Virus record (IMG/VR): IMGVR_UViG_2513237360_000007
Coordinates: 1-64,000 of that record
Source: a virus
Lineage: Duplodnaviria > Caudoviricetes
Direction: 5' to 3' (one strand)
Length of the DNA stretch: 64,000 bases
The position numbers and the translations under genes are program-made. The notes beneath the pieces were generated by a model, which made no database searches, was not told the DNA's origin, and saw only the letters and a list, made by a program, of their open reading frames with translations. Positions 2,583-55,453 of the stretch are shown here, piece after piece. Within the stretch, counting starts at the first letter, position 1. Each line of letters begins with the position of its first letter.

Positions 2583-2934
2583 TCTTCTCCTTATTTCCCT
2601 TTAGTAATTAGATAATTTTCCAGGTTAAAAATCGCCCATCGAAGTGTTGCCCCTGCTTCTATATCATGCTCCCTTTCTGCTCGCCTGAGCAGTTCATATG
2701 ATTTTTCAATCTTTGGCACATCCATATTTTTTATATTCTCCTAATAACTTAGCTACTCATCCATACATAATTGGTTCATTTTATTTAAATTTTGACGTGC
2801 TATTTCCTCGGTGTCTCTTCTATTTATCCTTTTCCTCCAAAATTCTTGTGTTCCATACCTTTCAACCATTAATTACCGATGTGTCGTTTAATTTGCCAGT
2901 TCTATCTAATCTTATCGCCTTCCTTCTTGTTTCG

Positions 2935-2943
2935 TGATATAAT
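2935..2943 (+). promoter_or_regulatory. Extended -10 promoter for K+ channel gene
   Basis: TG-A-TATAAT 31 nt upstream of ATG 2975. Confidence 0.55.
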
Positions 2944-2974
2944 TTAGTTGTAATTCATTTTGGGGGAGACATTT

Positions 2975-3763
2975 ATGAAAAAAAGAATATTTGAGATTAT
3001 TCAGTCAGCAAATACCGGTGATATTGCAAGTAAGATATTTGATTTATTTATCATGCTTCTTGTAATAATCAATTCAATAACGATAATGATTGATACTTTT
3101 TCTTTGCCTCAGAACTTCAAGACAACTATCCGTATAATTGATACTTCTACATCAATCATTTTTTCTATTGAATACGCATTAAGAATTTGGACCGCTCCGT
3201 TTTTATTTCCAAATAAATCAAATACAAAAGCGCGTATACGTTATATCTTTTCCTTTATGGCTATAATAGATTTACTTGCTATACTTCCATTTTACCTACC
3301 AATGTTAATACCATTTAATCTAAAGTCATTAAGATTGTTACGCTTAACACGCTTATTACGAATATTTAAAATGAACCGATATACAAACGCACTCTATAAA
3401 GTCGGAGCTGTTTTCAAAGCCAAGGCTAGTCAATTAATATCTTCTATGCTAGTTGTGGTAATGCTTATTATTTTGTCATCAATTTTAATGTTTAACATTG
3501 AAAATACTGCCCAACCGGAAGCCTTCACCAATATCTTTGATAGTATGTGGTGGGCTGTTGCCACTTTCACTACTGTTGGATACGGAGATATTTACCCGAT
3601 CACCGTAGCCGGTAAACTTTTAAGTACAATCATAGCGTTTCTTGGAATTGGACTAGTTGCTGTCCCAACTGGTATTATCTCTGCAGGTTTTGTAGAACAG
3701 ATTGATAAACATGATGATGATAAAAAACATTATTGCCCTTACTGCGGCAAACGATTAGATTAA
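2975..3763 (+). CDS. Voltage-gated-type (6TM) potassium channel / ion transporter, moron gene
   Basis: Selectivity filter TTVGYGD, pore helix DSMWWAVAT, S4-like LRLLRLTRLLRIFK, C-terminal CPYCG; opposite strand to neighbours; GGGGAG RBS. Confidence 0.93.
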   Translation: MKKRIFEIIQSANTGDIASKIFDLFIMLLVIINSITIMIDTFSLPQNFKTTIRIIDTSTSIIFSIEYALRIWTAPFLFPNKSNTKARIRYIFSFMAIIDLLAILPFYLPMLIPFNLKSLRLLRLTRLLRIFKMNRYTNALYKVGAVFKAKASQLISSMLVVVMLIILSSILMFNIENTAQPEAFTNIFDSMWWAVATFTTVGYGDIYPITVAGKLLSTIIAFLGIGLVAVPTGIISAGFVEQIDKHDDDKKHYCPYCGKRLD

Positions 3764-8656: not shown

Positions 8657-8674
8657 ACTAAGTTCCTCCAAATT

Positions 8675-8839
8675 TTAATTCTTCTGCTCACGAATTAACC
8701 GTTCGCACTCTTCTGTTGATAATTTACAAATACATCCCTGACAACTTTTCCTTGTCACTGCACATCTATAAGCTTCGTCATATTCGTTCCCGTTACGAAA
8801 TGGAATAACTACAACATAAGGACAGTTATAAAAATCCAT
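8675..8839 (-). CDS. Small Cys-rich protein (54 aa, MDFYNCPY...CQGCICK)
   Basis: AGGAG RBS; stop inside boundary motif; below ORF-track cutoff. Confidence 0.6.
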   Translation of the reverse strand: MDFYNCPYVVVIPFRNGNEYDEAYRCAVTRKSCQGCICKLSTEECERLIREQKN

Positions 8840-8866
8840 AGTTTTCTCCTTTTAAAAATAGCGATT

Positions 8867-9058
8867 CTATTTCCTTTCACAAGACAAATACCCTTCAAGC
8901 CACTTATAACAATCCGATGACCTTTTAGTACATAACCAGCCAGCTTCATCAAAATCTGCAAGCATTTCTCGAACGGATTTCATCCCTTTCGCCTGTTCTT
9001 CATCACTACATATCTCTATTAACTTATCAATAGCATCCATCATTTCATCTGTTACCAT
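8867..9058 (-). CDS. Hypothetical protein (63 aa)
   Basis: AAGGAGG RBS. Confidence 0.65.
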   Translation of the reverse strand: MVTDEMMDAIDKLIEICSDEEQAKGMKSVREMLADFDEAGWLCTKRSSDCYKWLEGYLSCERK

Positions 9059-9317
9059 TGTTAGTTTCCTCCTTATCGAATCCTGATTTTATCTCTTGAT
9101 TCAACTTATTTTATGGTGATCCCTGTATTCTTTACACATCTGACGATCCCAAACACTCTTCTATAAGGTTCCATATTGTCATACTCATTTCTTCATCGTC
9201 CTCAATACTGTGTCCTACATATTCTTCTATCCGTTGCTTTTCATTAAGACTGAACGTCATCAATACATTTAAAATTTCTTTCAACGCTTCTCCTACTAAA
9301 CTACAATATTACATAAT

Positions 9318-9352
9318 AAAAAACCACTAACTCCATATTTAAGTTAGCGGTT
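9318..9352 (-). terminator. Rho-independent terminator downstream of GNAT gene
   Basis: AACCACTAACT(9322-9332)/AGTTAGCGGTT(9342-9352) stem, followed by a T run on the minus strand. Confidence 0.7.
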
Positions 9353-9427
9353 CCCTATTTACATATTATTAAAACTGGATTTTGTACGACAGCATATCAC
9401 CGTAACGATTATTACAACCGGAAATTA

Positions 9428-9955
9428 TCAATCTATATCAATCCAATATCTTTGCTCTGTTTTCCCTTGATTTTGAATCTCATTTTCCAAGATTCCACCA
9501 TTGTTTTGAATGGATTTTGCTGAGCCGATATTATCCTTGTCGCATACCATTAGAACCTTATGAATTCCAAGTATTTTGCATTCTTCTAATGCTAATGCAA
9601 TCATTTTTGTGGCATATCCTTTTCTTCTTTCCGATGGTCGAATTCCATCACCGATATGACCCCCAAATTGTAGTAAATAATCATTTAAATAGTGGCGAAT
9701 ATTCACAGCACCAACAATAATATTTCTTTCGTTATCCAAACAAAAAAATGTTGAATCTGGAACCATTCCTTCTCCAGCTTTCTTACAATCTAGATTTGAA
9801 ATGTAGGATGTAAAATTGTGGTAGTCATTTCTGAAAATTGCCCAAGGAGAATGATTGGCAGATGCATGGTTATTATTATAATCAATCCATTCTTCCAGCA
9901 TATTTACTATTAAATTTTCATACTGAGCACTTGCCTTTACTAATCTTAACGCCAT
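9428..9955 (-). CDS. GNAT-family N-acetyltransferase (moron-like)
   Basis: IVGAVNIRHYLN..L..FGGHIGDGIRPSERRKGYAT, NIGSAKSIQNNGG motifs. Confidence 0.92.
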   Translation of the reverse strand: MALRLVKASAQYENLIVNMLEEWIDYNNNHASANHSPWAIFRNDYHNFTSYISNLDCKKAGEGMVPDSTFFCLDNERNIIVGAVNIRHYLNDYLLQFGGHIGDGIRPSERRKGYATKMIALALEECKILGIHKVLMVCDKDNIGSAKSIQNNGGILENEIQNQGKTEQRYWIDID

Positions 9956-10007
9956 AATTTATCATCCTCCACAAATACCATTTTCTATTTACAATATACA
10001 CCCGAAT

Positions 10008-10035
10008 ATACTAACTATCAATATAAACTTGTCAA
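10008..10035 (-). promoter_or_regulatory. Putative sigmaA promoter of GNAT gene
   Basis: TTGACA-16 nt-TAGTAT on minus strand. Confidence 0.45.
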
Positions 10036-10130
10036 GGTTCATTTACACTTTCAATATCGATTTTGTAAACTTAATTGTCCCATATATGCAACTATCTCTG
10101 GGACAACCATCTCTATCAATCTTAACCGTC

Positions 10131-10661
10131 TCACTCTGCCCCCTTAAATGGCTCCGGTAAAGGCATCCAGGCTAACACTTCGTCTATTGGGTAGAAGATA
10201 TGATTCAAATCTCCTAAGGCCGAAAATGCTGATGTCATCTCATATTCGCATTCCTGGTCTGCATATTCCCACTCTTTTTCATCGATATATCTCGCCTCAC
10301 ATGTCTCCAACCATTCGGGATGCGTGCATTGATCTCTATGTCTGGGATCTGCAATCCATTTATGATGCATAATCGTAACGAGAACCCTAACCTCTTTTTG
10401 TGGCAGCCGCTCCATCACCGAAATCCACCGTTGTTTCCACTGCTCCTCCTGAAACGCTGCCAAACAGTGCGCGGTCCGGGGTTTTTCAAAGTTATTCAGT
10501 TCCTCAATCTGATCGGTACCCTCATACTCCATCAGCTTCCAGAGGGCACCGTACAGCTTCTCGGATACCTCCTGAGTGATTGTCTGCCCAACATGTAGCT
10601 GCTCCCATTTCACGCCTCGCAGACTCCAGTTGCCTTGATCGTCTTTCTGCGTTAGTCTCAT
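10131..10661 (-). CDS. Phage protein with DUF551-like C-terminal domain
   Basis: WISVMERLP...VLAWMPLPEPFK signature. Confidence 0.8.
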   Translation of the reverse strand: MRLTQKDDQGNWSLRGVKWEQLHVGQTITQEVSEKLYGALWKLMEYEGTDQIEELNNFEKPRTAHCLAAFQEEQWKQRWISVMERLPQKEVRVLVTIMHHKWIADPRHRDQCTHPEWLETCEARYIDEKEWEYADQECEYEMTSAFSALGDLNHIFYPIDEVLAWMPLPEPFKGAE

Positions 10662-12114: not shown

Positions 12115-13146
12115 TTAAAAGATTTCATAGTCATATACATCATTAAAACAAATATTTCCGTTTTCTAAAAAAAACTTTCCCCAGGCGCTCTCGGCCGAAG
12201 ATGAATTAACGCAATACTCAGATTCACATCCTCCGTCATTAACATAAACCAGTAAATAAACAACTTTTTCTTTTTTAGATCCTTTTCTATAGGAATATGT
12301 ATCCATATCATCAAACCAGTCTTCTACACCGCATTTATATCCACCTCCATATGATCGTTCGTAATCATGCCAAACACCATAGGATCTTTCTATGTATTCA
12401 TACTGTTTGCTTTCAACAAGAAGAAGCCGCTTGACCACCTCTATCGTATTCAGCATTTCTTCGACTACCACTTCTTCTTTTACTGTATGTGCATAATAAT
12501 ATCCACAGCTCAAATTAACAGCAGCTATGCCACATTGGGGAGCTATAATGCTAATATCAGAAAAGGTACCATAGCACTCCTTAAATCCCGTTTCTTTTAT
12601 GATGAATTCTGTAAACTCCGGATTATCGCACTCATAGAATACCGCATCATTTGCGTGTGCCCGGTCAAGTTCAATCAAATAATGCAGCGAGTTTAACTCA
12701 TATAAGAGATCTGTATCACAAAATTTCCCACTTCCAACTCCACCGATTTCTTCGTCCTCGCAGAAAAGAACGGAGCATTTATACTCTTCCACGATTTTTA
12801 GAATTATATAGATACCACACCTGTCATCGCCCCCTATTCCTTGGGGTGAACTAATAATATGTTGCCCCTCAATAATTTGTTCATAGAAATTATACACTGT
12901 CGATTTATGCACAGTATCCATATGGGCGGTAAGAAGAACAGGAATTGTCCCCTTTGCGTATATGAACCCATCACCGACTGCGATATCCGTATAACCAGCA
13001 GCAATCAATGCTCTCGGAAGAAACTCTTTAAGTTGCACCTGTGTCATTTTACAAAGTTTTATAAAATCTGGCACTATGGAAAAATTTATCCCAATGCCAT
13101 TTTCGTTTTTGTATAGTTTTCCTTTTGTTTTCCCACTTTTGCTCAT
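12115..13146 (-). CDS. M28/M20-clan zinc peptidase-like protein
   Basis: AHMDTVH, GGDDRCG, DEEIGGVGS, IELDR, GYYYAHTVKE metal-ligand motifs. Confidence 0.85.
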   Translation of the reverse strand: MSKSGKTKGKLYKNENGIGINFSIVPDFIKLCKMTQVQLKEFLPRALIAAGYTDIAVGDGFIYAKGTIPVLLTAHMDTVHKSTVYNFYEQIIEGQHIISSPQGIGGDDRCGIYIILKIVEEYKCSVLFCEDEEIGGVGSGKFCDTDLLYELNSLHYLIELDRAHANDAVFYECDNPEFTEFIIKETGFKECYGTFSDISIIAPQCGIAAVNLSCGYYYAHTVKEEVVVEEMLNTIEVVKRLLLVESKQYEYIERSYGVWHDYERSYGGGYKCGVEDWFDDMDTYSYRKGSKKEKVVYLLVYVNDGGCESEYCVNSSSAESAWGKFFLENGNICFNDVYDYEIF

Positions 13147-26253: not shown

Positions 26254-26327
26254 GCGAATATTGAGTAATGGCTATCTCCCTTGCCTTCCAAGCAAGTATA
26301 TTGCTGGTTCGAATCCGGTTATTCGCT
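26254..26327 (+). tRNA. tRNA-Gly(TCC)
   Basis: GCGAATA/TATTCGC acceptor; CTTGC-CTTCCAA-GCAAG anticodon arm; GCTGG-TTCGAAT-CCGGT T arm; no encoded CCA. Confidence 0.85.
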
Positions 26328-44572: not shown

Positions 44573-47500
44573 GTGGCTAATAAAGGAGTAGATATTGAAT
44601 TTAAAGGAGGTTTTAATGATGATGATATTATTAAAGCTCTCCGTAAGGTAAATGGCGAAATAGATGAGACCAAGAAGAATGCTGAAGAACCAATTAAAGT
44701 TAATCTCGGTGGATTTGTAAAAGAATTCACAAAAGAGTTTGATGAAATTGATCGTATTATAGCTAAAAGAAAAGCTAATATTGATAAAAGGGTCATCAAT
44801 TACATCCCCAAGATCCAATTCAACTTGCGTGATGTTGAGTTATGGGAAGAAACACAAAAGAAAATTGATCGGCAGATAGCAAAAGCCAGAATGAACTATG
44901 ATCTTCCATCATTACAGACCGATTCATTTTCTAAGCAGCTAATCGCCAGAGAGAAACTTCTTGCTAGACTAGGCGAAAACACATCAAAACATAAAGCCTT
45001 AAAGCAAGTATGGATGGATGATGGACCATCTATAAGCAAAGCAAGAGCCAATATTGAGCTACTGCAACAACAAATAGCTTTAAAAGAAAAAATTCTACAA
45101 ATAGATACAAAAGTAAAACCCTTTCTTCCAAAAAGCGATTGGTCTACAAAATTTAATGGATCCGATGTAAATGCGCAAAAGGAAGCATTAAAAGAATCAA
45201 AAAGATTAATGGCTGATGAACTCTATACTGCTGCTGATAAAGAAAAAGAAAATATATTGGTAGCGTTAAAGGATTATGAAAAATCTGCTAACAAAATAAT
45301 GAGAGAAGGCAAATTCGATGAGTTTGTTTTCCCGGATCTTATTAGTAAATTTAATGCTATCGAATCATCTGCTCAAGACTATTTAATGAAGCTCGGCCTC
45401 ATTAAAGGAAAGACTTCCGAAACGCTAGAAACTTCACATAAGCAACTTACTTCATCTGCTCAGTTATTTGACAAATATGGGGCTACTGCCGAAGAAGTAT
45501 TCGTGAAGATTGACAAAATATTTTCTCAGGCTAATGATAGCGATGATGGCTTTTATGGATTAAGCAGTAGGAGCATTTCAGACCTCACAAAGATGATGGC
45601 TTTACTGGAACACTTTTCTGAGGGTGATTTATCGAAGCTTTCTTTAGAAGGTGATGAGTTCTTTGGCTTCCAAGATGAGCTAAAAGAAATCCAGAGTTTC
45701 TTAAAAGATGAATTTACAGTTGACGAATCATTAGAAGAAGTATTTAAATCCACAATAGATCAACTCAATCAATTGGAGTCTACTGCTGAGGAAGCTGTTC
45801 CTGCTATTGAAAAAGTGGAAAATTCCCTTAATCCAGATAGTGATGAATCTAAAATAGAGGCAAAAACTGACGCCATTGAAAATTTAACCGAAGCAATGCA
45901 GCGCCAGGCAGAATCTGATGAAGCTTTATCAAAAACATCATCATTATCCGATGATCATATCACTAATATAGAAAACACCACGGAAGCCATTAACCAATTG
46001 AATGAAGCTGAAAAAGAAAGGGATAAGTTAGATGCCCCCACCGCTTCTATCGATTCCACGTTGGATACTGATATTGATAAACTTGAGAAAAAAACTAAAG
46101 CTACTAAAGAGTTAGATGATGTACAGGAAAAGCAGAAACAAAATGAAATTGCGCTCCAAAAAGAACTCTTATTCTTAGACGAACGAGAGAATTCATATTG
46201 GGAGACACGGGAAAAGCTTTTAAAAGATGGAGTTGCACAGCAAGAAGCTTATGCTAACTTAAGGAAAGAACAAGAAAATAATTATAACCAAAGTTGGATT
46301 ATAGCAGAGACTAACAGGATGTTATCATCCTATGCTGCGGCTGAAGGTAAAGTAATTGGCTATGGGCGTGCAGTTCAAAGTGCCAGTGATAAGGCTAATC
46401 ATCTGGCGACTGCCTGGGAGAATGGTAGCATATCTGCAAAGAAATATGAAACAGAGATAGCAAAAATCAATAGTGAATTAAGTAATAAAAAATATAACTT
46501 AACCGGCGCAGAGACCGGCGTCTTTTCGACTAATCCACAGAACATAATTATACTGGAAAAAGAGATGCGCGCTCTTGCTCTGGCAACTGAAGGTATTATT
46601 CCAGAAAGTATTGCATTCAATGAACAATCAAAAAGAATGTCATATGAAACAAAAGATGCTGCTGGAAATATTAGTAAGTATTCTATTGCCATCAATTCAC
46701 TTAATGACGAACTTCTTCGTTATCAAACAAAGACTATTCAGGCCATAGGTCCAACACAAGAATTTTTCAACTTTTTATCTCAGAGTTTTAAGAAGGTATC
46801 GTCATATATCTTTAGTTTTGGGTCTTTTTATAGATTATGGGCAGAACTAAAACAGGGAATTACTATCATTCGTGACATTGATGATGCCATGACTGAACTC
46901 AAGAAGGTCAGTGATGAAACTGCCTATACATACACTAAGTTTCAAAAGCAGGCAGCTGCCGAAGGGCGCGATGTTGCCCAAACTACGAGCGACATGGTTC
47001 AGGCTTCGTCTGACTGGAAAAAGATGGGATACAATTTACAGGAATCCCTTAATCTCGCAAAATCATCATCACTCTATGTTAATGTTGGTGACGATGTTAA
47101 CATAACCGAGGCTACATCAGACTTAGTTTCTACCATTAAAGCGTTTAATATGAACGCAGATGATTCAATAGGCATTGTTGATCGTCTAAATGCTGTATCA
47201 AATAATTTTGCTGTCACATCAAAAGATCTAGGAAATATTCTAAATCATTCCTCATCCTCTCTCGCTGCCGCCAATACTTCAATAGATAAAACAATAGCAA
47301 TGGGCGCTGCCATGAATGAAGTTCTACAAGATAGTTCTACTTCTGGTAGCACATTGAAAATATTGTCCATGAGGCTACGCGGAGCAAAAGTAGAATTAGA
47401 GGCTGCGGGTGAATCAACTGAAGGTATGGCAGAATCCACATCAAAACTTCGCGAAAAAATCAAAGCCCTGACGAACATAAATGGATCTGGCGGATTTGAC

Positions 47501-47929
47501 ATAATGAAGGATGATAATACATTCAAAGATGTATACGAAATGATGGATGGAATTGCTGAAAAGTGGAAAGGTATGGATGATATATCCAGAGCTGGCTTAC
47601 TTGAATTAATCGCAGGTAAGATGAGAGCTCAAGGAGTATCTGCGCTTTTAAACAATTGGTCCGAAGCCGAAGCCATACTAAAAACTTCCTTGGATTCATC
47701 TGGATCAGCAGCCAAAGAAAACGAAACCTATCTTGATTCAATATCTGGTCGCGTTAAGCAATTACAGGCTCAGTATCAAGAGCTTTGGCAGACCACCCTA
47801 AATGACGATTCAATCAAATTCTTTATTGAACTTGCGACAAGTGTCACTAAAGTTGCAACTGATATGGGAGGACTACTTCCTATAGTTGCAACCTTAACGA
47901 CATTATTAGCTGGTATCAAATATGCGGGT
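44573..47929 (+). CDS. Tape measure protein, exon 1 (1119 codons; TP901-type TMP domain)
   Basis: AGGAGG + GTG start; IDDAMTELKKV...NAVSNNFAVTS...ILSMRLRG TMP motifs; ends at predicted 5' splice site GCGGGT/. Confidence 0.88.
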
Positions 47930-48472
47930 AAAGTAATTCGTAACCGTGACAACGAATGTGCCCTTCTCATTAATGCTGCGTAATATACTCCCACAAAGTA
48001 AACGATGAGAATGTCCCGTCACGTAAATAAATAACTAAGGGACGCATAGGCGTATAATATGCTGGGAACTCCCCCAAACACCTCTTCACCGAAACTCACC
48101 GAAAGGTGTGCTGTACAGCCGGGGCCGTGAGGCAGAAAAAAGTAAGAGGTTCTTGTTCAGAACAAAATTCTGTTCAATACACCAGTCCAATATTTTCTGG
48201 TCAAGGGAGGGTCAATAGGTAGCCCATATGGGTGAAAGCAGGCTGTTTCCTAAGTGCGTAAGCATATGGAATCGCCCCAGAGACTGACAAGGCCGGTCTG
48301 CCCGCAGGGATAATTGCGTGCGGATTCAAAATACAGTCCAAATGCCGAAGGAAATTGGATAACACTTCGGTCGGAGTAGTGCTCCGTGTGGTACTCTTCT
48401 TCTATTGCCTGGTGCAACGGGTTATCCCGGTGGCAATCGAAGTGCTCTTAAATGAGTGATATTTTCTAAAAA

Positions 48473-48688
48473 TTATAAAAGGAAATAAAACATTAAAATA
48501 GCCAAAAATATAAAGATAATAATCCAAAGTAATGATTCTCCAGTGGGCTTCTGTCCCTTCACTTTTTTATTCTTCGTCTGTTTTAGAGAAAACCTCTTGG
48601 GTGTCTTTTCTCTATCAACACCTCTTGCCTGATCAAAAAGATAGTGATCTCGGGAGTCGATTTTATTATCATGGTTCATGTCAAACAT
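48473..48688 (-). CDS. Intron cargo: small membrane protein with EF-hand-like N-terminus
   Basis: DMNHDNKIDSRD loop; C-terminal TM helix LLWIIIFIFLAILMFYFLL. Confidence 0.7.
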   Translation of the reverse strand: MFDMNHDNKIDSRDHYLFDQARGVDREKTPKRFSLKQTKNKKVKGQKPTGESLLWIIIFIFLAILMFYFLL

Positions 48689-48715
48689 AACTTCAATTCC
48701 CTCTACTACATATTA

Positions 48716-49858
48716 CTAAATAATCAGTTCTACAATACCTTCATACAAAGTTCCGCTTTCTAAAATAGCCTCTTTAATTTGTGTGCTAGTGGTCAGAGGA
48801 GGAAAACTGGCGAAATCACACTGAGAATATTCCACATTGTTGTTAATACAGTAATTTTTTTTATTACAATAGCAATCAATATTTTTTGACTCACAATTAT
48901 ATTTGTTTAGTCTAAACGTTTTTGGGGGGATTTTGTTTGCATCAAGTCGCTGTTTACAATTCAGTGAATTGTAATATCTATATAGAGGAAAATATTCATT
49001 GTCAAGATTATATAATGCAATTTTCTCTTCTAGATCAAGTTTTTTATATTGCCTATATTTCTCTTTAACCCACTCATCAAGGCGATAGAGATCCTTTGAC
49101 CAATCTCGAAATCCCTCCATTATGCTCTTATGAATTCCACTATTTATATCATCCTCTAACCTCTTGTACCAATCTGCCTGTTTTAAAGGCACAATGCCAA
49201 AATCAAAATTTGCAAAATTATAAAAGTCAATCTCTAAGTCAGGCATTTTTCCATTTCTGATTCTTTTTTGATTTTTAAAAAACCAATCTTTAGAAAGGGT
49301 ATTCTTTAATTCCGTTGGGTGGATAGGATTCCTTTTATTCCTCTCTCTAAAATCATTTATTTCATTTATTCCGATAATAGCTTTTTCTATTGTTGAAAAA
49401 TAATAATGTGGAAACTTAATAATAACTGACCTAAGTTGCAAAGTACTATTTAATTTAATCCTATATAATCGTAACATATTAAGAGATGTACTATAACTCC
49501 GCTTAGCATTATTGTATGAGTCCAAGTAAGCTGAATTATCCTCCAAGTATATACATTTTTCATTAATATACTTTATTGTTTTTTTTATCTCATCAATTTC
49601 TTGTCGCAATATTTGAATTGATTCCTTTAAAAATGCAATCTTTTTATCTATAGCAATATACTTTAGTGGGTTATTTAATACATCAGCTTTGTTGCCAGAA
49701 TTCCTAGCACGTTTACTCTTGGTCCTTAATTCCTGTACTTGCTTTTCAATTTTCTCAATACTGTTATATAATATTTGTAAATCATCATAAGATGCCTGTA
49801 TGTCCCGTCTTTTTTCCACTTTAGCAGTTTGAATCCATTTAAACTGTTCCTTTGGCAT
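48716..49858 (-). CDS. Intron cargo: unknown 380-aa protein, coiled-coil N-half
   Basis: GAGGT RBS; AT-rich; no LAGLIDADG, GIY-YIG or HNH motif visible. Confidence 0.8.
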   Translation of the reverse strand: MPKEQFKWIQTAKVEKRRDIQASYDDLQILYNSIEKIEKQVQELRTKSKRARNSGNKADVLNNPLKYIAIDKKIAFLKESIQILRQEIDEIKKTIKYINEKCIYLEDNSAYLDSYNNAKRSYSTSLNMLRLYRIKLNSTLQLRSVIIKFPHYYFSTIEKAIIGINEINDFRERNKRNPIHPTELKNTLSKDWFFKNQKRIRNGKMPDLEIDFYNFANFDFGIVPLKQADWYKRLEDDINSGIHKSIMEGFRDWSKDLYRLDEWVKEKYRQYKKLDLEEKIALYNLDNEYFPLYRYYNSLNCKQRLDANKIPPKTFRLNKYNCESKNIDCYCNKKNYCINNNVEYSQCDFASFPPLTTSTQIKEAILESGTLYEGIVELII

Positions 49859-50133
49859 ATAGTATATTTACCTCTTAATCATTCTATGCAAAAAGTATTT
49901 GTATCCCAACCAATTGCATCAAAATTATAGCCTATTTCATTTCTCTCATAATATCTTTAACTAATCTATCTCTTGATAATATTCGCTCCATACATTTCGC
50001 CAAGTAATCGTTCTGGTAATTTCATCAAAAAAATTATTATTATTCAACACGGTATGTTTTAAATACGCAGAACACTCTTCTGCTATTTTTATTGGATCTT
50101 TCTTTTGATCTAATGCCAACAAATAATTATAGA

Positions 50134-50511
50134 TTACCATTCATATCCACAATTATCACAGTGAAACTGACGTTTCACTTTCTGCGAAAATATCCCAAAA
50201 GCCAGTACCGATCCTGCCTTTGATATCTCTGATATTTTATGAACATTTGTGCTTGAACAAGTTGGGCAACGAACAACATGTTCTTTTTTATATTCATTGC
50301 GCAATCGCATATCATTACTATTTTCAAAGGAGATGTATTTCTCAACTATAACCCTTGCTTCATCAGGGCTACATCCTCCGACTTCGCTAATTCTTTGTAT
50401 TAACCTTTTTCTTTCATGAACACTATTACTTTTCCGAATTTCAGTAAAAAGCGAACTACTTTTTTGCAAAATTTTGCGTTCATTTAAAGTATATTTTTGA
50501 GATACCATCAT
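50134..50511 (-). CDS. Intron cargo: Zn-ribbon protein (CPTC...CDNC, 125 aa)
   Basis: GGAGG RBS before ATG 50511; CPTCSSTNVHKIS...AFGIFS...FHCDNCGYEW. Confidence 0.8.
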   Translation of the reverse strand: MMVSQKYTLNERKILQKSSSLFTEIRKSNSVHERKRLIQRISEVGGCSPDEARVIVEKYISFENSNDMRLRNEYKKEHVVRCPTCSSTNVHKISEISKAGSVLAFGIFSQKVKRQFHCDNCGYEW

Positions 50512-50537
50512 TATTTCCCCTCCCCTCTTTTTAACCA

Positions 50538-50546
50538 ATTATAACA
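50538..50546 (-). promoter_or_regulatory. Extended -10 promoter driving the antisense cargo operon
   Basis: TG-T-TATAAT on minus strand, 26 nt upstream of ATG 50511. Confidence 0.6.
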
Positions 50547-50605
50547 TATGAATATATGCAATGCACCTGCTATTTCATATATGTATGGCTACCTACCACA
50601 TTGTG

Positions 50606-53600
50606 ACATTCGAATTAGTTGGGGAAAAAATAAATGGAATCAAGGCCGCCGTCACATCATCATCATCTCTAAAAAACATAACAAATGAACTCTTAGAGCT
50701 GACAAAAGATATGACTGTCCAGAAAACAATGGAATATTTGTCTTATGCCCAAGTCAATAAGCAACTGGCCGCCAGGATACTATATTCTAAGGGATTACGG
50801 GCAGAACAGCTCAAGGAAGCCATGTCTACCTATCAAATAGCTACAGCAACAGGAATACTTGGTACAGCACAAAAAGTAACGTCTGCTACAACAGTACTGT
50901 TTTCCAGAACAATTGTCCAATCCAAATTCCTGCTCCAAGGTTTATGGGCTACCCTAATGGCCAACCCGTTAATCCTAGTTGTCGGCTTAATATCAGCAGT
51001 TACTCTGGGAGTTACAAAATGGAAACAGGCTCAAGAAGAATTACGCCAGACTACAGCGGATGCAGCAGCCGAACTAGAAAACTCATCAAAAGAAATTGGC
51101 ACTTATGCGGATAGATATAAGGAACTTCATACAGCTCTTCATGATGCAAAAGATAGTGAAGAAGAAACATACAAAATTAAGAGTGATCTATTAGCACTTC
51201 AAAAAGAATTAAACGAGAAATACGGTGATGAGTATGGGAAAATCAATCTCGTCACTGATGCTTATAGAGATCAGACGGAGGCTATTCTAGCTTACAAGCG
51301 TGCTGCCAGCGAGAAATATTTAAATGAGAATCGCTTAGGTATTAATGATGCCAAGCAAAAAATGACTGAAATCAATACCTTCCAATTGGCAGATATGATT
51401 TCATCAAAATCCAGTTCTGGAATATCCATTAAAAATCTAGCCAAAAAGCATGGTATAAAAATCGCGGAAAATGAAGAGTATGGATTGTTTAGTCTATACA
51501 TTAAAGCAGACGCTACTCAAGCCAAAGAAACAACAAATAGTTTCATGACTGACTTGAGCAAGATGCAAGGCAGATTTAATGATAGTGCCGTAGAAAATGT
51601 ACTGGATTCTTCCAGCCGGGTCATGAAGAACCTTCAGGATGATTTCTTCAATCTGTATGGAGACCAATTCCAAGAAGCACTATTGGCTGAAGTCCAAACG
51701 GACTATGGACGGGCTGATAATGTCCTCTCTCAAGGATATAGTGATGCCACTGCCGCGGTAAATGAATACAATGAAGCATTACTAAAAAGTTCTAATCCGT
51801 ATGATGACAAAGCCGTTACTGAAGCGTATGAAAACTTGCAGATCATCCGAGCTTCTATAGAAGAAAATTCCAGTGCATGGGATGGATACGAGTCTGTTAT
51901 TAGTGATGTATTTAGTGCTGCTGATACAAGACTTATCGATTTCAATAATCTCATTGGTTCCAACAAAGAGGGGATCGGGGATTTAGTTTCTGAAATCAAG
52001 GATTTGAATTTGTCGGATGTGGACTTACAAGCTATGTCGGATAATGGAGCAAATGGTGATATCTTTGATCGGTTATCCGCAAAAGCAAAACGGTATCAAG
52101 TTAATGTTGGAGAGCTGATATCATTATTAGTTCAACTTGGTGTTGTACAGAGTACAGTATCCAAGCAGGAAATTGTTAAGCCCCAAACCAAAGCCGAAGC
52201 AATCAGTGCCGTAAACGCTCTTACTGATGGTTTTGAAGAATTGGATAAGATTTACAAAAGCCTCAAGGGAAAAGATCCGTTTGACTTTTCATTGCTTGAT
52301 AATAAAAATTTCAAGGATACATTTGGCGGACTCGGCAAAAGCTACACGGACTTCGTAGAACAAATAGCAAGTTCTCCTAAAGATATTGCTGCTTGTCAAA
52401 GTGCTTTTAATGACTTGATCACCACATGGCTTGAAAGCACCCACATCTTAGATGATGTTAATGAAGATACTGCGGGCGTAACCGTGGCAATGCTTAAAAT
52501 TATGGGTGTTGCAAATGCCGAAGAATTGGTAATGAGCCATCTCGCCGATGCTCATGAATACGCAGCGCTTGAGAAGAAATTCAATGCTGAGATGTCAGCT
52601 AATCTTGAGGGAGCCACTGCCAGCGAGATTAATAAAATTTTTGATGAAGCAGATGTTGTTGACGAGGCAAAACAAGCGATGGCTGGATTTGCTCTGCAAA
52701 AAGAAATTGCCAATGGAATATCCCTTGATACCTCTGCAGACATTGAAAACTTACTTGCACTCGTTGGAATAATCGGTTCTGCTAATACTGCATTAAAAGC
52801 CTTAAATACATTACGACAAGGCGGCGATGTTGGCGGAAATATTGGCGGTAAGGAAGGCTATGACTATCTTGTTCGACAGGCACAGCTTGAAATTGAAGAA
52901 GCTTTAAAGAAGGCTGCCGAATATAAAGGAAAAGGCAAGGTCAATTACATTGGTGGTAATGAATCCAACAAAAGTGGCTCAAAAGGGAGTAAGCCTAAAA
53001 AGCCAACAGAATTTGATGCAGCTGCGGAATCAGTTAAAAATCTAAAAGCCCAAATTGACTCCTTAAATGGCGTACTTGAAAATACGAAGCCTTATGATCA
53101 GCAGCTAAGAATTCTTAATCTCATTGTTGAAAAACAGAAGGAATACTTTGATGCGTTAAAAAAGCAGGATGAATTTTACAATGGAGCATACCAGCAGTCC
53201 CTCTCTTCTCTACCTCAAGAATGGCAAGATAGGATTACCGGCGATGATAACTTTTCCATTGATGAGGTTCCTGAATCCATAAAAGATGCTGTCACAGAAG
53301 CTCAGGGATTGAAAGATAAATGGGTTGCTGTAAAACAAGAGATCCAAAAAGCAAACGGTGAATTGGATACGACCAAGCAAAAGACGCATGATTTAGCTCA
53401 AACAAAGTTAGATAATGAAATTGGTCTTCTTGAGAATAAAATAACTGATATCCAAAATAAAATGGACGAAGCTGAAGCCATGGGCTTGCAATCCACCAAA
53501 AAGCAGTATAAGAACTTAATCAGTCTTTCAAAACAGGCTGCTTCCTACCAACAGAATAAGCTTCAAGGATATATGGCAAATCTAATCGCCATGGAGGTTG

Positions 53601-55453
53601 CCGGAGAAACAAACACCGACCAGTATTACGAAACCGCTGAAGCAATCCAGAATTGCGAAAATGCAATATCCCAATGTGCTCAGAATCAAGCCAAATGGAA
53701 TAAGGCTATGTTGGAACTTCCCATTCAATATTTAGAGAAGGCCAATGATGAGCTCAATGACCAGCTGGAGGAGTTACAGGACAAGCAGAACGATTATGAC
53801 AGTGCTATAAATGGTGTCACCAGCCATTTGCAAGAACAAATTGACGCCCAGCAAAAACTAAGGGATGAAGCAGAAAAAACATCGCAGGCTCAGATCGATG
53901 CTATTCAGGAACAAATTGATGGCCTCCAGGAATCAAACGATAAGCGTAAGCAACAGCTAGAATTAGAGCAAAAGCAATATGATCTTGAACGGGCTAAGAA
54001 TCAAAAGACAACTAAAGTCTTCCGTGAAGAAGCTGGCGGCTTTATATATGAAGCTGATCAAAGCGCTATTCGTGATGCCCAAGATGCTTATGATGATGCT
54101 CTCTTGAACAAGCAATTGTCTGATCTGGAAGACAAGATTAAGGACATTGAGGATTCACGCGATGCATTGTTAGATTCTTATGATAATGAAATTGACCGGC
54201 TTCAAACAATTATGGATTCATGGAATGATATTACTGATGCAATCCAACGAGCTAAAGATATGGCTATGGCTAATTCTATCTTCGGCGCTGGATGGCAAGA
54301 TCGTGTTACCAGTGGCGATACAAGTGATTTAGAAGACATAACCGGCAAGTATGATAAAAATGATCGTGATCGCTCTTGGGTGGAAGAACAAATTGAAGCC
54401 AATGAACGGCTTATCCGTGAAGTTGAACGATATGTATCAGCTTGGCAGATGGGAGAAATCAGCATCCGGGAGGCCCGGGAATCTATTAATGATATTGTAG
54501 GAGATATTGCTCCTGAAATTGAGGCAAACGATGAGCGTGTCAATAGTATTTCAACTTACCAGGATCAATGGACCAATGCTAATGATAGGGTAAGCGAAAA
54601 CATTAGCGCCCTCAATGATACAACTGCTAATAACAGTGCCGAGGTAAATGCAACAAACCAACGGCGTGATGCTGCATTACAGTATGCTGATCAATGGGCC
54701 AATAATGTTCTTTCCGTTGGAAGTTCGCTATCTAACATTACTGAAGCCAACGCCGCTGCCACAAATGCTGAAGGTTTATTTCTTGATGCCAGAATAAGCA
54801 AATTAAGTCTTTTCAAAGATGTTTATGCCGAAATGGCTTCTGTAATTGGAGACAAATGCAAAAGCATTGTTGATGCATGCAAAGAAGCAGAACGAGCATT
54901 ACGTAGTTTGGATAAAGCAGAGAATGGTGGTGGATCCTCAAGCGGTGGTCATTGGGACTCTTCCGGTGCGTCCGGGGGCCCAGGCGTATACGCTGATGGA
55001 ATATTAAATGGGCGTCTTGGTGGACGTAGCGAATCTGAAAAAGAAAAGATGCTTAAGTATCTGACTACACATGATCTTAAAAATGGAGAAATTCCTATTA
55101 TTGGTCATGAAAATGAAGTCGTCTTGAACCCTGATCAGCAGGAACAGGCCATTCAGAATACGGAGAAATTGGCTGACGTTTCAGGTGCCCAACTCATATT
55201 TGACGCCGATAACATTTCCTCATTCTCAGGAATGCTTAGCAATAATGCTATGTTTACTAAAGGAAATATCTTCAAAGGTATCTCAACTCTCCCACCGAAT
55301 GTCTCCAACAGTAATGTAAGACACGGGGATATAAAGGTTGAGATAGCTAATGTGACATTGCCACGTGTAAAAGATAGTGATAGCTTCCTAAAATCCATGA
55401 CTGATGGCAGCATGCAATCTGCTATTCAACAACAACTTTATAAACGAAGATAG
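50606..55453 (+). CDS. Tape measure protein, exon 2 (1615 aa; spliced product about 2734 aa)
   Basis: Long coiled-coil, amphipathic ANPLILVVGLISAV segment, late YADG motif; no RBS at 50561; in frame with exon 1. Confidence 0.88.
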   Translation, partial: TFELVGEKINGIKAAVTSSSSLKNITNELLELTKDMTVQKTMEYLSYAQVNKQLAARILYSKGLRAEQLKEAMSTYQIATATGILGTAQKVTSATTVLFSRTIVQSKFLLQGLWATLMANPLILVVGLISAVTLGVTKWKQAQEELRQTTADAAAELENSSKEIGTYADRYKELHTALHDAKDSEEETYKIKSDLLALQKELNEKYGDEYGKINLVTDAYRDQTEAILAYKRAASEKYLNENRLGINDAKQKMTEINTFQLADMISSKSSSGISIKNLAKKHGIKIAENEEYGLFSLYIKADATQAKETTNSFMTDLSKMQGRFNDSAVENVLDSSSRVMKNLQDDFFNLYGDQFQEALLAEVQTDYGRADNVLSQGYSDATAAVNEYNEALLKSSNPYDDKAVTEAYENLQIIRASIEENSSAWDGYESVISDVFSAADTRLIDFNNLIGSNKEGIGDLVSEIKDLNLSDVDLQAMSDNGANGDIFDRLSAKAKRYQVNVGELISLLVQLGVVQSTVSKQEIVKPQTKAEAISAVNALTDGFEELDKIYKSLKGKDPFDFSLLDNKNFKDTFGGLGKSYTDFVEQIASSPKDIAACQSAFNDLITTWLESTHILDDVNEDTAGVTVAMLKIMGVANAEELVMSHLADAHEYAALEKKFNAEMSANLEGATASEINKIFDEADVVDEAKQAMAGFALQKEIANGISLDTSADIENLLALVGIIGSANTALKALNTLRQGGDVGGNIGGKEGYDYLVRQAQLEIEEALKKAAEYKGKGKVNYIGGNESNKSGSKGSKPKKPTEFDAAAESVKNLKAQIDSLNGVLENTKPYDQQLRILNLIVEKQKEYFDALKKQDEFYNGAYQQSLSSLPQEWQDRITGDDNFSIDEVPESIKDAVTEAQGLKDKWVAVKQEIQKANGELDTTKQKTHDLAQTKLDNEIGLLENKITDIQNKMDEAEAMGLQSTKKQYKNLISLSKQAASYQQNKLQGYMANLIAMEVAGETNTDQYYETAEAIQNCENAISQCAQNQAKWNKAMLELPIQYLEKANDELNDQLEELQDKQNDYDSAINGVTSHLQEQIDAQQKLRDEAEKTSQAQIDAIQEQIDGLQESNDKRKQQLELEQKQYDLERAKNQKTTKVFREEAGGFIYEADQSAIRDAQDAYDDALLNKQLSDLEDKIKDIEDSRDALLDSYDNEIDRLQTIMDSWNDITDAIQRAKDMAMANSIFGAGWQDRVTSGDTSDLEDITGKYDKNDRDRSWVEEQIEANERLIREVERYVSAWQMGEISIREARESINDIVGDIAPEIEANDERVNSISTYQDQWTNANDRVSENISALNDTTANNSAEVNATNQRRDAALQYADQWANNVLSVGSSLSNITEANAAATNAEGLFLDARISKLSLFKDVYAEMASVIGDKCKSIVDACKEAERALRSLDKAENGGGSSSGGHWDSSGASGGPGVYADGILNGRLGGRSESEKEKMLKYLTTHDLKNGEIPIIGHENEVVLNPDQQEQAIQNTEKLADVSGAQLIFDADNISSFSGMLSNNAMFTKGNIFKGISTLPPNVSNSNVRHGDIKVEIANVTLPRVKDSDSFLKSMTDGSMQSAIQQQLYKRR

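Follow-up and report, generated by a model that had tools for sequence, protein, structure and literature searches.

An antisense gene cassette with its own predicted promoter in a putative group I intron of a prophage tape measure gene

Why is the tape measure protein (TMP) gene of a gut prophage divided into two open reading frames (ORFs), with genes of the opposite orientation between them? The question is raised by the virus record IMGVR_UViG_2513237360_000007 (Duplodnaviria; Caudoviricetes), of which positions 1–64,000 were analyzed here (the window). The window is a part of a 74.6-kb IMG/VR provirus record. A preliminary description of this DNA had proposed that three minus-strand genes constitute a promoter-bearing cargo operon in the loop of an intron. 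We propose, with a probability of roughly 0.6, that the region contains an intron-borne antisense transcription unit in the TMP gene, in which a zinc-ribbon gene is the hallmark and further accessory genes are exchangeable. YomU- and YomN-type tail genes are present in the relatives of the phage; therefore, these are regarded as SPbeta-like phages. The genomic relatives are nearly all from Lachnospiraceae and other gut Clostridia, and the host phage is probably an SPbeta-like prophage of Lachnospiraceae-type gut Clostridia.

The predicted features of the TMP gene and its intron are as follows.

44573–47929, plus strand: TMP exon 1; the ORF 44573–47983 continues into the intron and stops at 47983
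47930–50605, plus strand: putative group I intron of 2676 nucleotides; 5' splice site after U47929, last base G50605
47930–48440, plus strand: structured ribozyme core from P1 to the terminal peripheral hairpin; G+C content (GC) 0.474, with covariation
47954–47963, plus strand: internal guide sequence GAAUGU-GCCC, 25 nucleotides into the intron
48280–48339, plus strand: P7-P3'-P8-P7', assigned from the P7 layout and P8 covariation
48401–48440, plus strand: last conserved core hairpin, with four compensatory pairs in helices 22 and 23
50606–55453, plus strand: TMP exon 2, in the frame of the ORF 50561–55453; matches phrog_9959 and phrog_4211

The ORFs 44573–47983 and 50561–55453 appear to be the two halves of one TMP. 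The first ORF matches PF10145 (PhageMin_Tail, E-value 2.7e-21), and its residues 682–1115 match positions 525–946 of the phrog_4211 profile, which is resumed by the second ORF at positions 914–1744. Homologues of the first ORF align to approximately 7 residues short of its end. The internal ATG at 50561 is not preceded by a Shine-Dalgarno sequence and is not a conserved start. In more distant relatives the TMP runs uninterrupted across the insertion site, and the same site is occupied in phages whose TMPs are only 40–50% identical. An intron-less allele of the TMP of the window was not seen among contigs from four sequencing runs.

The ends of the intron are defined by pairing with the guide. 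The end of exon 1, GGGU (47926–47929), pairs with GCCC (47960–47963) to form P1, in which a U.G wobble is placed at the splice site. The remaining part of the guide, GAAUGU (47954–47959), pairs with the start of exon 2, ACAUUC (50606–50611), to form P10. The exons are joined in frame (...IKYAG/TFELVGEK; the slash marks the junction). P1 and P10 are compensated in three lineages with an insertion at this one TMP site: GGGU/ACAUUC with the guide GAAUGU-GCCC in the window, GGU/AUACAA with UUGUAU-GCC in the related locus L002, and UUGCU/CAACUG with UAGUUG-GGCAA in L062. In the close relatives L058, L059, and L061, the guide and the junction G/ACATTC are retained despite unalignable sequence flanking the 3' splice site.

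The P7 region of textbook group I introns, such as that of Tetrahymena, has a closing pair, a bulged A, and a G-C pair at the guanosine site. In the window, G48280 pairs with C48339, A48281 is bulged, and GACUG (48282–48286) is paired with CAGUC (48334–48338); this predicted P7 fits the canonical layout. Its outer pair is G-C in the window and A-U in L107. P8 contains three compensatory pairs, and P9, P9.1, and several upstream helices also covary. In an alignment of four close cores, RNAalifold predicted 133 pairs with 99.2% of the cells paired, and 17 pairs showed compensatory changes compared with 0–3 in slid controls. Coordinated changes are also seen in the more distant loci L002 and L107, where they affect P8, P9, a long-range helix, and two hairpins with GNRA caps. 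The candidate P3 (48117–48121 with 48293–48297) is invariant in the sequences compared. We consider the assignment of 47930–50605 as a group I intron splitting the TMP gene to be well supported by these sequence comparisons. A group II intron was rejected; neither a GUGYG start nor a domain V in the 94 nucleotides between the zinc-ribbon start and the 3' splice site was found.

A 3-bp hairpin capped by a GNRA tetraloop, with an A-rich run after it, is common to three intron lineages and covaries (GCC-GUGA-GGC at 48121–48140 of the window, GCC-GAAA-GGC at approximately 7087–7106 of L002, and GUC-GAAA-GAC at approximately 4347–4328 of L107). By analogy, it recalls the tetraloop/A-rich-bulge motifs of group I peripheral domains.

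A covariance model (R1) was built from P7 to the terminal hairpin with an automatic consensus structure lacking P7. The search recovered only its own subfamily and L107, and the model is too narrow to survey the intron family. Spliced joints were absent from the contigs of the four sequencing runs, which gave only short identical contigs. One run labeled as metagenomic RNA-Seq (X11) contained two 151-nucleotide contigs (50071–50221 and 50312–50462), both assigned to the zinc-ribbon gene; their strand and molecule type are indeterminable, and they were not used as evidence.

The antisense cassette and its control elements are as follows, in their reading order on the minus strand.

50561–50567, both strands: conserved element; on the minus strand a −35-like GTGCAT, 17 nucleotides from the −10 box, and on the plus strand (A)UGCACC
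50538–50546, minus strand: extended −10 box TGTTATAAT of the antisense promoter, read from the sequence
50517–50527, minus strand: ribosome binding site (RBS) GAGGGGAGGGG, five bases before the zinc-ribbon ATG
50134–50511, minus strand: first gene, zinc-ribbon protein of 125 residues from the ATG (134 residues from an upstream TTG)
49961–50140, minus strand: 59-residue ORF overlapping the zinc-ribbon stop; a doubtful gene, absent from the preliminary description
48716–49858, minus strand: 380-residue protein with an N-terminal coiled coil, a Trp-rich helical middle, and a Cys-rich C-terminal part
48473–48688, minus strand: last gene, tail-anchored membrane protein of 71 residues; RBS GAGGGAA

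The ORF listing agrees with the preliminary description in the three minus-strand ORFs of 125, 380, and 71 residues, and the extended −10 box and the strong RBS that it placed ahead of them are found at 50546–50538 and 50527–50517 of the minus strand. The cargo was also correctly described as richer in AT than the ribozyme core: its GC is 0.307 (48473–50511) compared with 0.474, and it is below that of all 310 sliding 2-kb windows of the whole stretch, which has a GC of 0.385; such a composition looks foreign.

The predicted promoter, which the preliminary description ascribed to the host sigma factor, is conserved at the sequence level. In all four close relatives, GTGCAA/T is followed at exactly 17 nucleotides by TGnTATAAT (TGCTATACT in L061), and in L058 the conserved promoter stands ahead of an extra first gene. 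In 29 of 43 related loci, a perfect TATAAT is present at most 120 nucleotides ahead of the first antisense gene, usually 20–50 nucleotides from the start, compared with 9.8% of random windows in the same loci. Promoter and terminator scans of the region showed no enrichment over shuffled sequences. The extended −10 promoter is missing from the list of the promoter scan because its −35 element is weak. The sole terminator-like hairpin of the region is located inside the cargo on the plus strand (50067–50083), where TATTTTTATT comes after a 6-bp stem. One such site was found and 1.7 were expected, which is no more than chance would give; if it is a real terminator, the TMP pre-mRNA would be cut inside the intron.

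The element at 50561–50567 may act as a promoter, as an RNA helix, or as both. On the plus strand, (A)UGCACC is complementary to GGUGCA(A) at 48411–48417, with one mismatch here relative to the conserved UUGCACC, and TTGCACCTRCT is conserved in L058, L059, and L061 inside otherwise unalignable tails. The complementary GGUGCAA (48411–48417) is the invariant internal loop of the last core hairpin. The preliminary description had placed the cargo inside a loop closed by a helix at 48386/50594. The 8-bp helix (48386–48393 with 50594–50601) is present here, but it is not conserved: L058 and L059 have only its 5' arm, even though the core of L058 is 99% identical to that of the window. The GGUGCAA loop and the 3' element are therefore put forward as a better candidate for the closing pairing. 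The covarying ribozyme structure extends to 48440; therefore, the cargo slot begins at approximately 48441 rather than at 48394. A pairing between the P9.1 loop and the 3' tail was also considered and rejected, since changes in the loop are not compensated.

The zinc-ribbon gene is the constant signature of this intron family. More than 60 related loci, mostly from Lachnospiraceae prophages, have it in a constant first position among their antisense genes. A homologue is placed antisense, adjoining the 3' end of the intervening sequence, in approximately 25 related viral contigs, and the same placement was found in every metagenomic context opened and in most of 48 bacterial genome loci. A long minus-strand ORF to the left of the zinc-ribbon gene ends within 100 nucleotides of the zinc-ribbon start in 26 of the 37 loci that have such an ORF, and the long ORF beside the zinc-ribbon gene is TMP exon 2 where tested. 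In approximately 15 loci and in L062, only 430–760 nucleotides separate the zinc-ribbon gene from TMP exon 1 and the intron contains no other gene; approximately 10 loci have 1.3–5.9 kb of further genes in this interval. Searches against 50,697 phage records gave no match to the region by blastn and one unannotated faecal contig by tblastn with the zinc-ribbon protein.

These distributions divide the proposal that the loop is a swappable cargo slot. The middle of the cassette does vary. However, the zinc-ribbon gene is constant across the family, and the gene of the last membrane protein is conserved in the close subfamily. Because the zinc-ribbon gene is constant and often alone, it is the fixed gene of the family rather than swappable cargo, and the introns carrying only this gene indicate that the 380- and 71-residue proteins are dispensable for the intron family.

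The cassettes of the close subfamily have the following gene order.

Window: zinc ribbon, 59 residues, 380 residues, 71 residues
L058: extra gene of 115 residues, zinc ribbon, 348 residues, 71 residues
L059: zinc ribbon, 274 residues, 399 residues, 53 residues
L061: zinc ribbon, 197 residues, 274 residues, 402 residues, 61 residues, and two sense-strand ORFs
L068 (1.6-kb contig): zinc-ribbon end, 334 residues, 58 residues

The comparison of homologous introns called for in the preliminary description gave the expected pattern: the core is 85–99% identical in three relatives, and the cargo differs. The last gene product always starts with M-x-D-(M/F)-NHDNKID-x-RD and has a hydrophobic tail at its C-terminus; homologues of the 71-residue protein close the cassette in L058 (96%), L059, L061, and L068. 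The trio of the window recurs in two other contigs, L058 and L068, giving three independent sequences in all. The window and L058 are 95.6% identical over 47000–49653 and 75% identical in the zinc-ribbon gene. They have no similarity over 50514–50828, and the identity is again 95% beyond this point. The pair forms a recombination mosaic, with the right-hand breakpoint in exon 2. The 59-residue ORF, which has neither a clear RBS nor a homologue, lies in the segment that differs from L058, where an ORF from the same ATG extends as the 348-residue protein. In L058, the extra 115-residue gene (2622–2969, plus strand in the locus) is located between the conserved promoter and the zinc-ribbon gene, which indicates that new genes can also enter upstream of the signature gene.

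The zinc-ribbon protein has a C-terminal CxxC...CxxC zinc ribbon, and Pfam zinc-ribbon families match it only below threshold. Its last 45 residues are nearly invariant in 36 homologues, while the N-terminus is variable. An AlphaFold2 model (predicted local distance difference test score, pLDDT, 76.5) has a confident N-terminal helical bundle, a zinc ribbon, and a hydrophobic loop of low confidence between the two zinc knuckles. No informative match to this model was found by Foldseek in the PDB and BFVD, and a PDB profile search gave only marginal zinc-ribbon matches, to TFIIE and RpoM.

The 380-residue protein is a near-orphan; homologues were found only in L058 (84% over 311 residues), P0002, and P0003/L068 (34%). 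Word-index, exhaustive phmmer, and profile searches returned the protein itself, one fragment, one 34% relative, and three marginal matches, and the viral contigs searched contained no relative. No match was found in Pfam, PHROGs, PADLOC, or the PDB, and the Trp-rich helical region is weakly similar to repeats in two large proteins. The ESM Atlas model (pLDDT 0.45) is too low in quality to judge the fold, and the Atlas gave no usable match. The 71-residue protein has an N-terminal DxNxDxKIDxxD loop resembling a calcium-binding site (EF-hand_5, E-value 0.15) and ends in a 19-residue hydrophobic tail.

The ratios of nonsynonymous to synonymous substitution rates (dN/dS) are 0.20 for the zinc-ribbon protein, 0.43 for the 380-residue protein, and 0.35 for the 71-residue protein; the trio is under purifying selection, and this and the RBSs support these ORFs as real genes. 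The synonymous sites of the zinc-ribbon gene are saturated in comparisons with L059 and L061.

Pfam, PHROGs, PADLOC, PDB sequence profiles, the ESM Atlas, and Foldseek gave no function for the cargo proteins of the window. The best PADLOC hit was coiled-coil noise (E-value 0.007), and nothing was significant. A plain homing endonuclease, named in the preliminary description as a finding that would contradict it, was not encountered, since no homing family in Pfam, PHROGs, or PADLOC matches any cargo protein. GIY-YIG, HNH, LAGLIDADG, His-Cys, PD-(D/E)xK, and EDxHD are absent from the Pfam and PHROG matches of all four ORFs, and PDB profiles and Foldseek gave nothing. No transposase family, the IS200/IS605 type and TnpB included, was found in the cassette ORFs with Pfam and PHROGs.

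In relatives, the slot encodes retropepsin-like proteases, helix-turn-helix proteins, and coiled-coil proteins. At the equivalent place, L102 encodes a GmrSD_N-S24 fusion that matches PADLOC NsnA / PD-T4-2_A (2.5e-61) and is co-oriented with the zinc-ribbon gene.

Gene pairs of approximately 90 and 140 residues were observed in distant lineages on the TMP strand directly after the ribozyme core (L013, 7711–8405; L045, 7472–7882; L046, 7593–8090; L065, 8746–9449). The larger protein of the pair is a retropepsin-like aspartyl protease (PF13650/PF13975). L080 encodes a 503-residue GmrSD_N (DUF262) protein on the TMP strand (8672–10180, minus strand in the locus), 1.5 kb past the zinc-ribbon gene; TMP exon 1 was not found there with the query used, so this gene may or may not lie inside the intron.

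From these observations, the following mechanism can be proposed. The cassette would be a 3' peripheral insertion of the group I intron 47930–50605, and a sigma-A-type extended −10 promoter would lie wholly within the last 70 nucleotides of the intron. The promoter would be followed by the strong RBS, the zinc-ribbon gene, the doubtful 59-residue ORF, and the genes of the 380- and 71-residue proteins. The ribozyme would remove the whole insert from the late TMP transcript, and the essential gene could therefore tolerate it. Accessory genes would accumulate between the zinc-ribbon gene and the ribozyme core and would be exchanged through recombination between the conserved flanks. Transcription of the cassette by host RNA polymerase may not depend on the late operon and could take place, for instance, in the lysogen. 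The trio might constitute a joint accessory module acting most likely at the membrane, in superinfection exclusion or abortive infection. The sequence comparisons give good support to the anatomy, in which a group I intron contains an antisense cassette preceded by a promoter of its own, the zinc-ribbon gene is constant, and the slot behind it varies.

Several observations weigh against this proposal. RF00028 was unmatched at E-values up to 10 in the window, in the 3.2-kb region, in the 501-nucleotide core alone, and in the genome search, and it was unmatched at the gathering score in the loci of 18 relatives. P3 and the P4-P6 domain lack a confident assignment. No RNA run was found that contains the stretch, and splicing and minus-strand transcription are both predicted from the sequence. 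The −35 element is weak (3/6), and the minus strand has no terminator-like site from 48473 down to 45500. Therefore, the cassette is not an insulated moron in the strict sense, and the antisense transcript probably runs on into the ribozyme core and exon 1. No defence, exclusion, or toxin family in Pfam, PHROGs, or PADLOC was matched by the cargo of the window. In L102, which encodes the defence-like fusion, the TMP halves are approximately 15.7 kb apart with an IS256 element between them, and this intron may no longer be working. Finally, the constancy of the zinc-ribbon gene would fit a role serving the intron as well as one serving the host.

The last point leads to the best rival explanation, in which the intron rather than the host benefits from the zinc-ribbon protein. 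The protein would take the place of a homing endonuclease, for example as a DNA-binding factor for mobility, maintenance, or splicing, and the other genes would hitch-hike. The gene is the only one common to all family members, is alone in approximately 15 introns and L062, and has a fixed position beside the 3' splice site. The introns occupy one TMP site in phages with TMPs of only 40–50% identity. The segment exchanged relative to L058 comprises the zinc-ribbon gene, the 3' splice site, and 220 nucleotides of exon 2, and it resembles a co-conversion tract. However, the conserved 45-residue zinc ribbon has no conserved His, Asp, or Glu catalytic set, no nuclease match (GIY-YIG, HNH, LAGLIDADG, or PD-(D/E)xK) was found in Pfam, PHROGs, or the PDB, no fold match was obtained, and no intron-less TMP allele was seen to indicate mobility. 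We regard this explanation as unlikely.

Alternatively, the antisense RNA itself might be the main product, running unterminated through the core into exon 1 and silencing leaky late transcription in the lysogen or tuning tail production. The promoter is conserved and faces the late operon, and no terminator-like site is found on the minus strand between 48473 and 45500. However, the proteins are under purifying selection, and the zinc-ribbon domain is near-invariant while the DNA diverges (synonymous divergence approximately 1 relative to L058). Selection at the protein level makes a role of the RNA alone insufficient; an antisense effect may be added, but as the main role it is improbable.

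We consider it very improbable that splicing does not occur, with the TMP made as two polypeptides and an ordinary moron island and another structured RNA between them: the missing Rfam group I match at any threshold, the lack of RNA support, and the very long intervening regions of some relatives (4–6 kb, and approximately 15.7 kb in L102) would agree with it, but RF00028 has been reported to miss phage introns (PMC11878797). In three lineages, the guide matches both exon ends through compensated pairs, a U stands at the 5' splice site, and a G closes the intron. ACATTC is retained at the junction amid unalignable flanks, P7 is canonical, neither an RBS nor a conserved start is found for the second TMP half, and more distant TMPs are uninterrupted across the site.

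An intron-borne antisense transcription unit with a zinc-ribbon hallmark and exchangeable accessory genes thus remains our preferred explanation. A bolder extension of it is possible but tentative. The introns might form a widespread family in SPbeta-like Lachnospiraceae phages, in which the homing endonuclease has been replaced by a promoter-driven antisense zinc-ribbon gene. The intron would then be a protected store of prophage-expressed accessory or defence genes within an essential tail gene, and the phage would not survive an imprecise deletion there. The ribozyme would keep the TMP intact, and the zinc-ribbon protein would represent a novel type of intron-associated factor. This protein, near-invariant over 45 residues in phages whose TMPs share only 40–50% identity, is a testable target.

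The proposed anatomy explains why these giant TMP genes appear in annotations as two genes separated by "hypothetical" ones, and it shows that the standard covariance model misses a whole intron family; according to a survey, RF00028 is incomplete, and phage introns can escape it (PMC11878797). The variable slot would be a source of candidate exclusion and defence genes, as suggested by the NsnA-like gene in one relative, and the layout points to a natural place where payload genes could be put into phage genomes with no disruption of function.

Other features were observed in these genomes. Related TMP genes have further interruptions elsewhere, visible as frame changes between aligned blocks. 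Approximately 370–490 extra bases are located inside the exon 1 match in L013, L036–L044, L047, L053, and L057, and another interruption is located at 12780–13210 of L105. Several introns per TMP gene seem to be common in this SPbeta-like phage group. On the plus strand of the window, a 267-residue ORF (2960–3763) matches PF00520 (Ion_trans, E-value 2e-38) and also PF07885, and it looks like a voltage-gated-type cation channel gene in the prophage. A tRNA gene (26254–26327, plus strand, 50.7 bits) is the sole Rfam match in the window.

The cassette can be compared with several known systems. Prophage morons and hotspots, such as those of lambda-like and P2/P4 phages, are AT-rich exchanged cassettes with their own promoter, conserved flanks, and variable content, sometimes including defence genes. 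Classical morons are located between genes and have a terminator. In contrast, the present cassette lies inside an essential gene, would depend on splicing, and has no recognizable terminator. IStrons (CdISt1 of Clostridioides difficile and BcISt1 of Bacillus cereus) have a 5' group I ribozyme and a long coding insert near the 3' end, and the whole element is spliced out; it is moved by its cargo, an IS200/IS605-type transposon (TnpA/TnpB). Unlike IStrons, the present intron carries an antisense accessory cassette without a transposase and occupies one homologous TMP site.

The introns of T4 td, nrdB, and sunY, of the SPO1 and Moonbeam DNA polymerase genes, and of the Moonbeam terminase gene (PMC4299906) are likewise introns in essential phage genes with an ORF in a peripheral loop; they are self-splicing, and in the present case splicing is predicted from the sequence. 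Those introns encode a known endonuclease on the sense strand, whereas here several antisense ORFs are present and none of them matches an endonuclease family. Nuclear ribosomal DNA introns with an antisense homing endonuclease gene, such as that at position L2066 (PMC9548176), show that group I introns can accommodate genes in the opposite orientation. Those introns are eukaryotic and contain a single His-Cys endonuclease gene expressed by an RNA polymerase II route, while the present cassette is multi-genic with a predicted bacterial promoter.

Close counterparts are also the group I introns TMP-IVS1, IVS2, and IVS3 in the TMP genes of Bacillus cereus-group prophages (Tourasse and Kolsto 2008, PMC2504315). 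Both are group I introns in the TMP genes of temperate Firmicutes phages with a guide adapted to each insertion site, and many of the Bacillus introns also lack a working homing endonuclease (PMC2504315). TMP-IVS1–3 belong to IA1/IA2 and carry a sense-strand GIY-YIG or HNH gene, its remnants, or nothing (PMC2504315). No antisense gene or cassette with its own promoter was reported for them (PMC2504315), and the present family is unmatched by RF00028. In a non-exhaustive literature search, no description was found of a bacterial group I intron that carries several antisense genes as a cassette under their own promoter. If our reading is correct, the ribozyme protects an accessory cassette with transcription of its own within a virion gene that is essential, and bacterial group I introns would have a third mode of existence in addition to endonuclease homing and IStron transposition.

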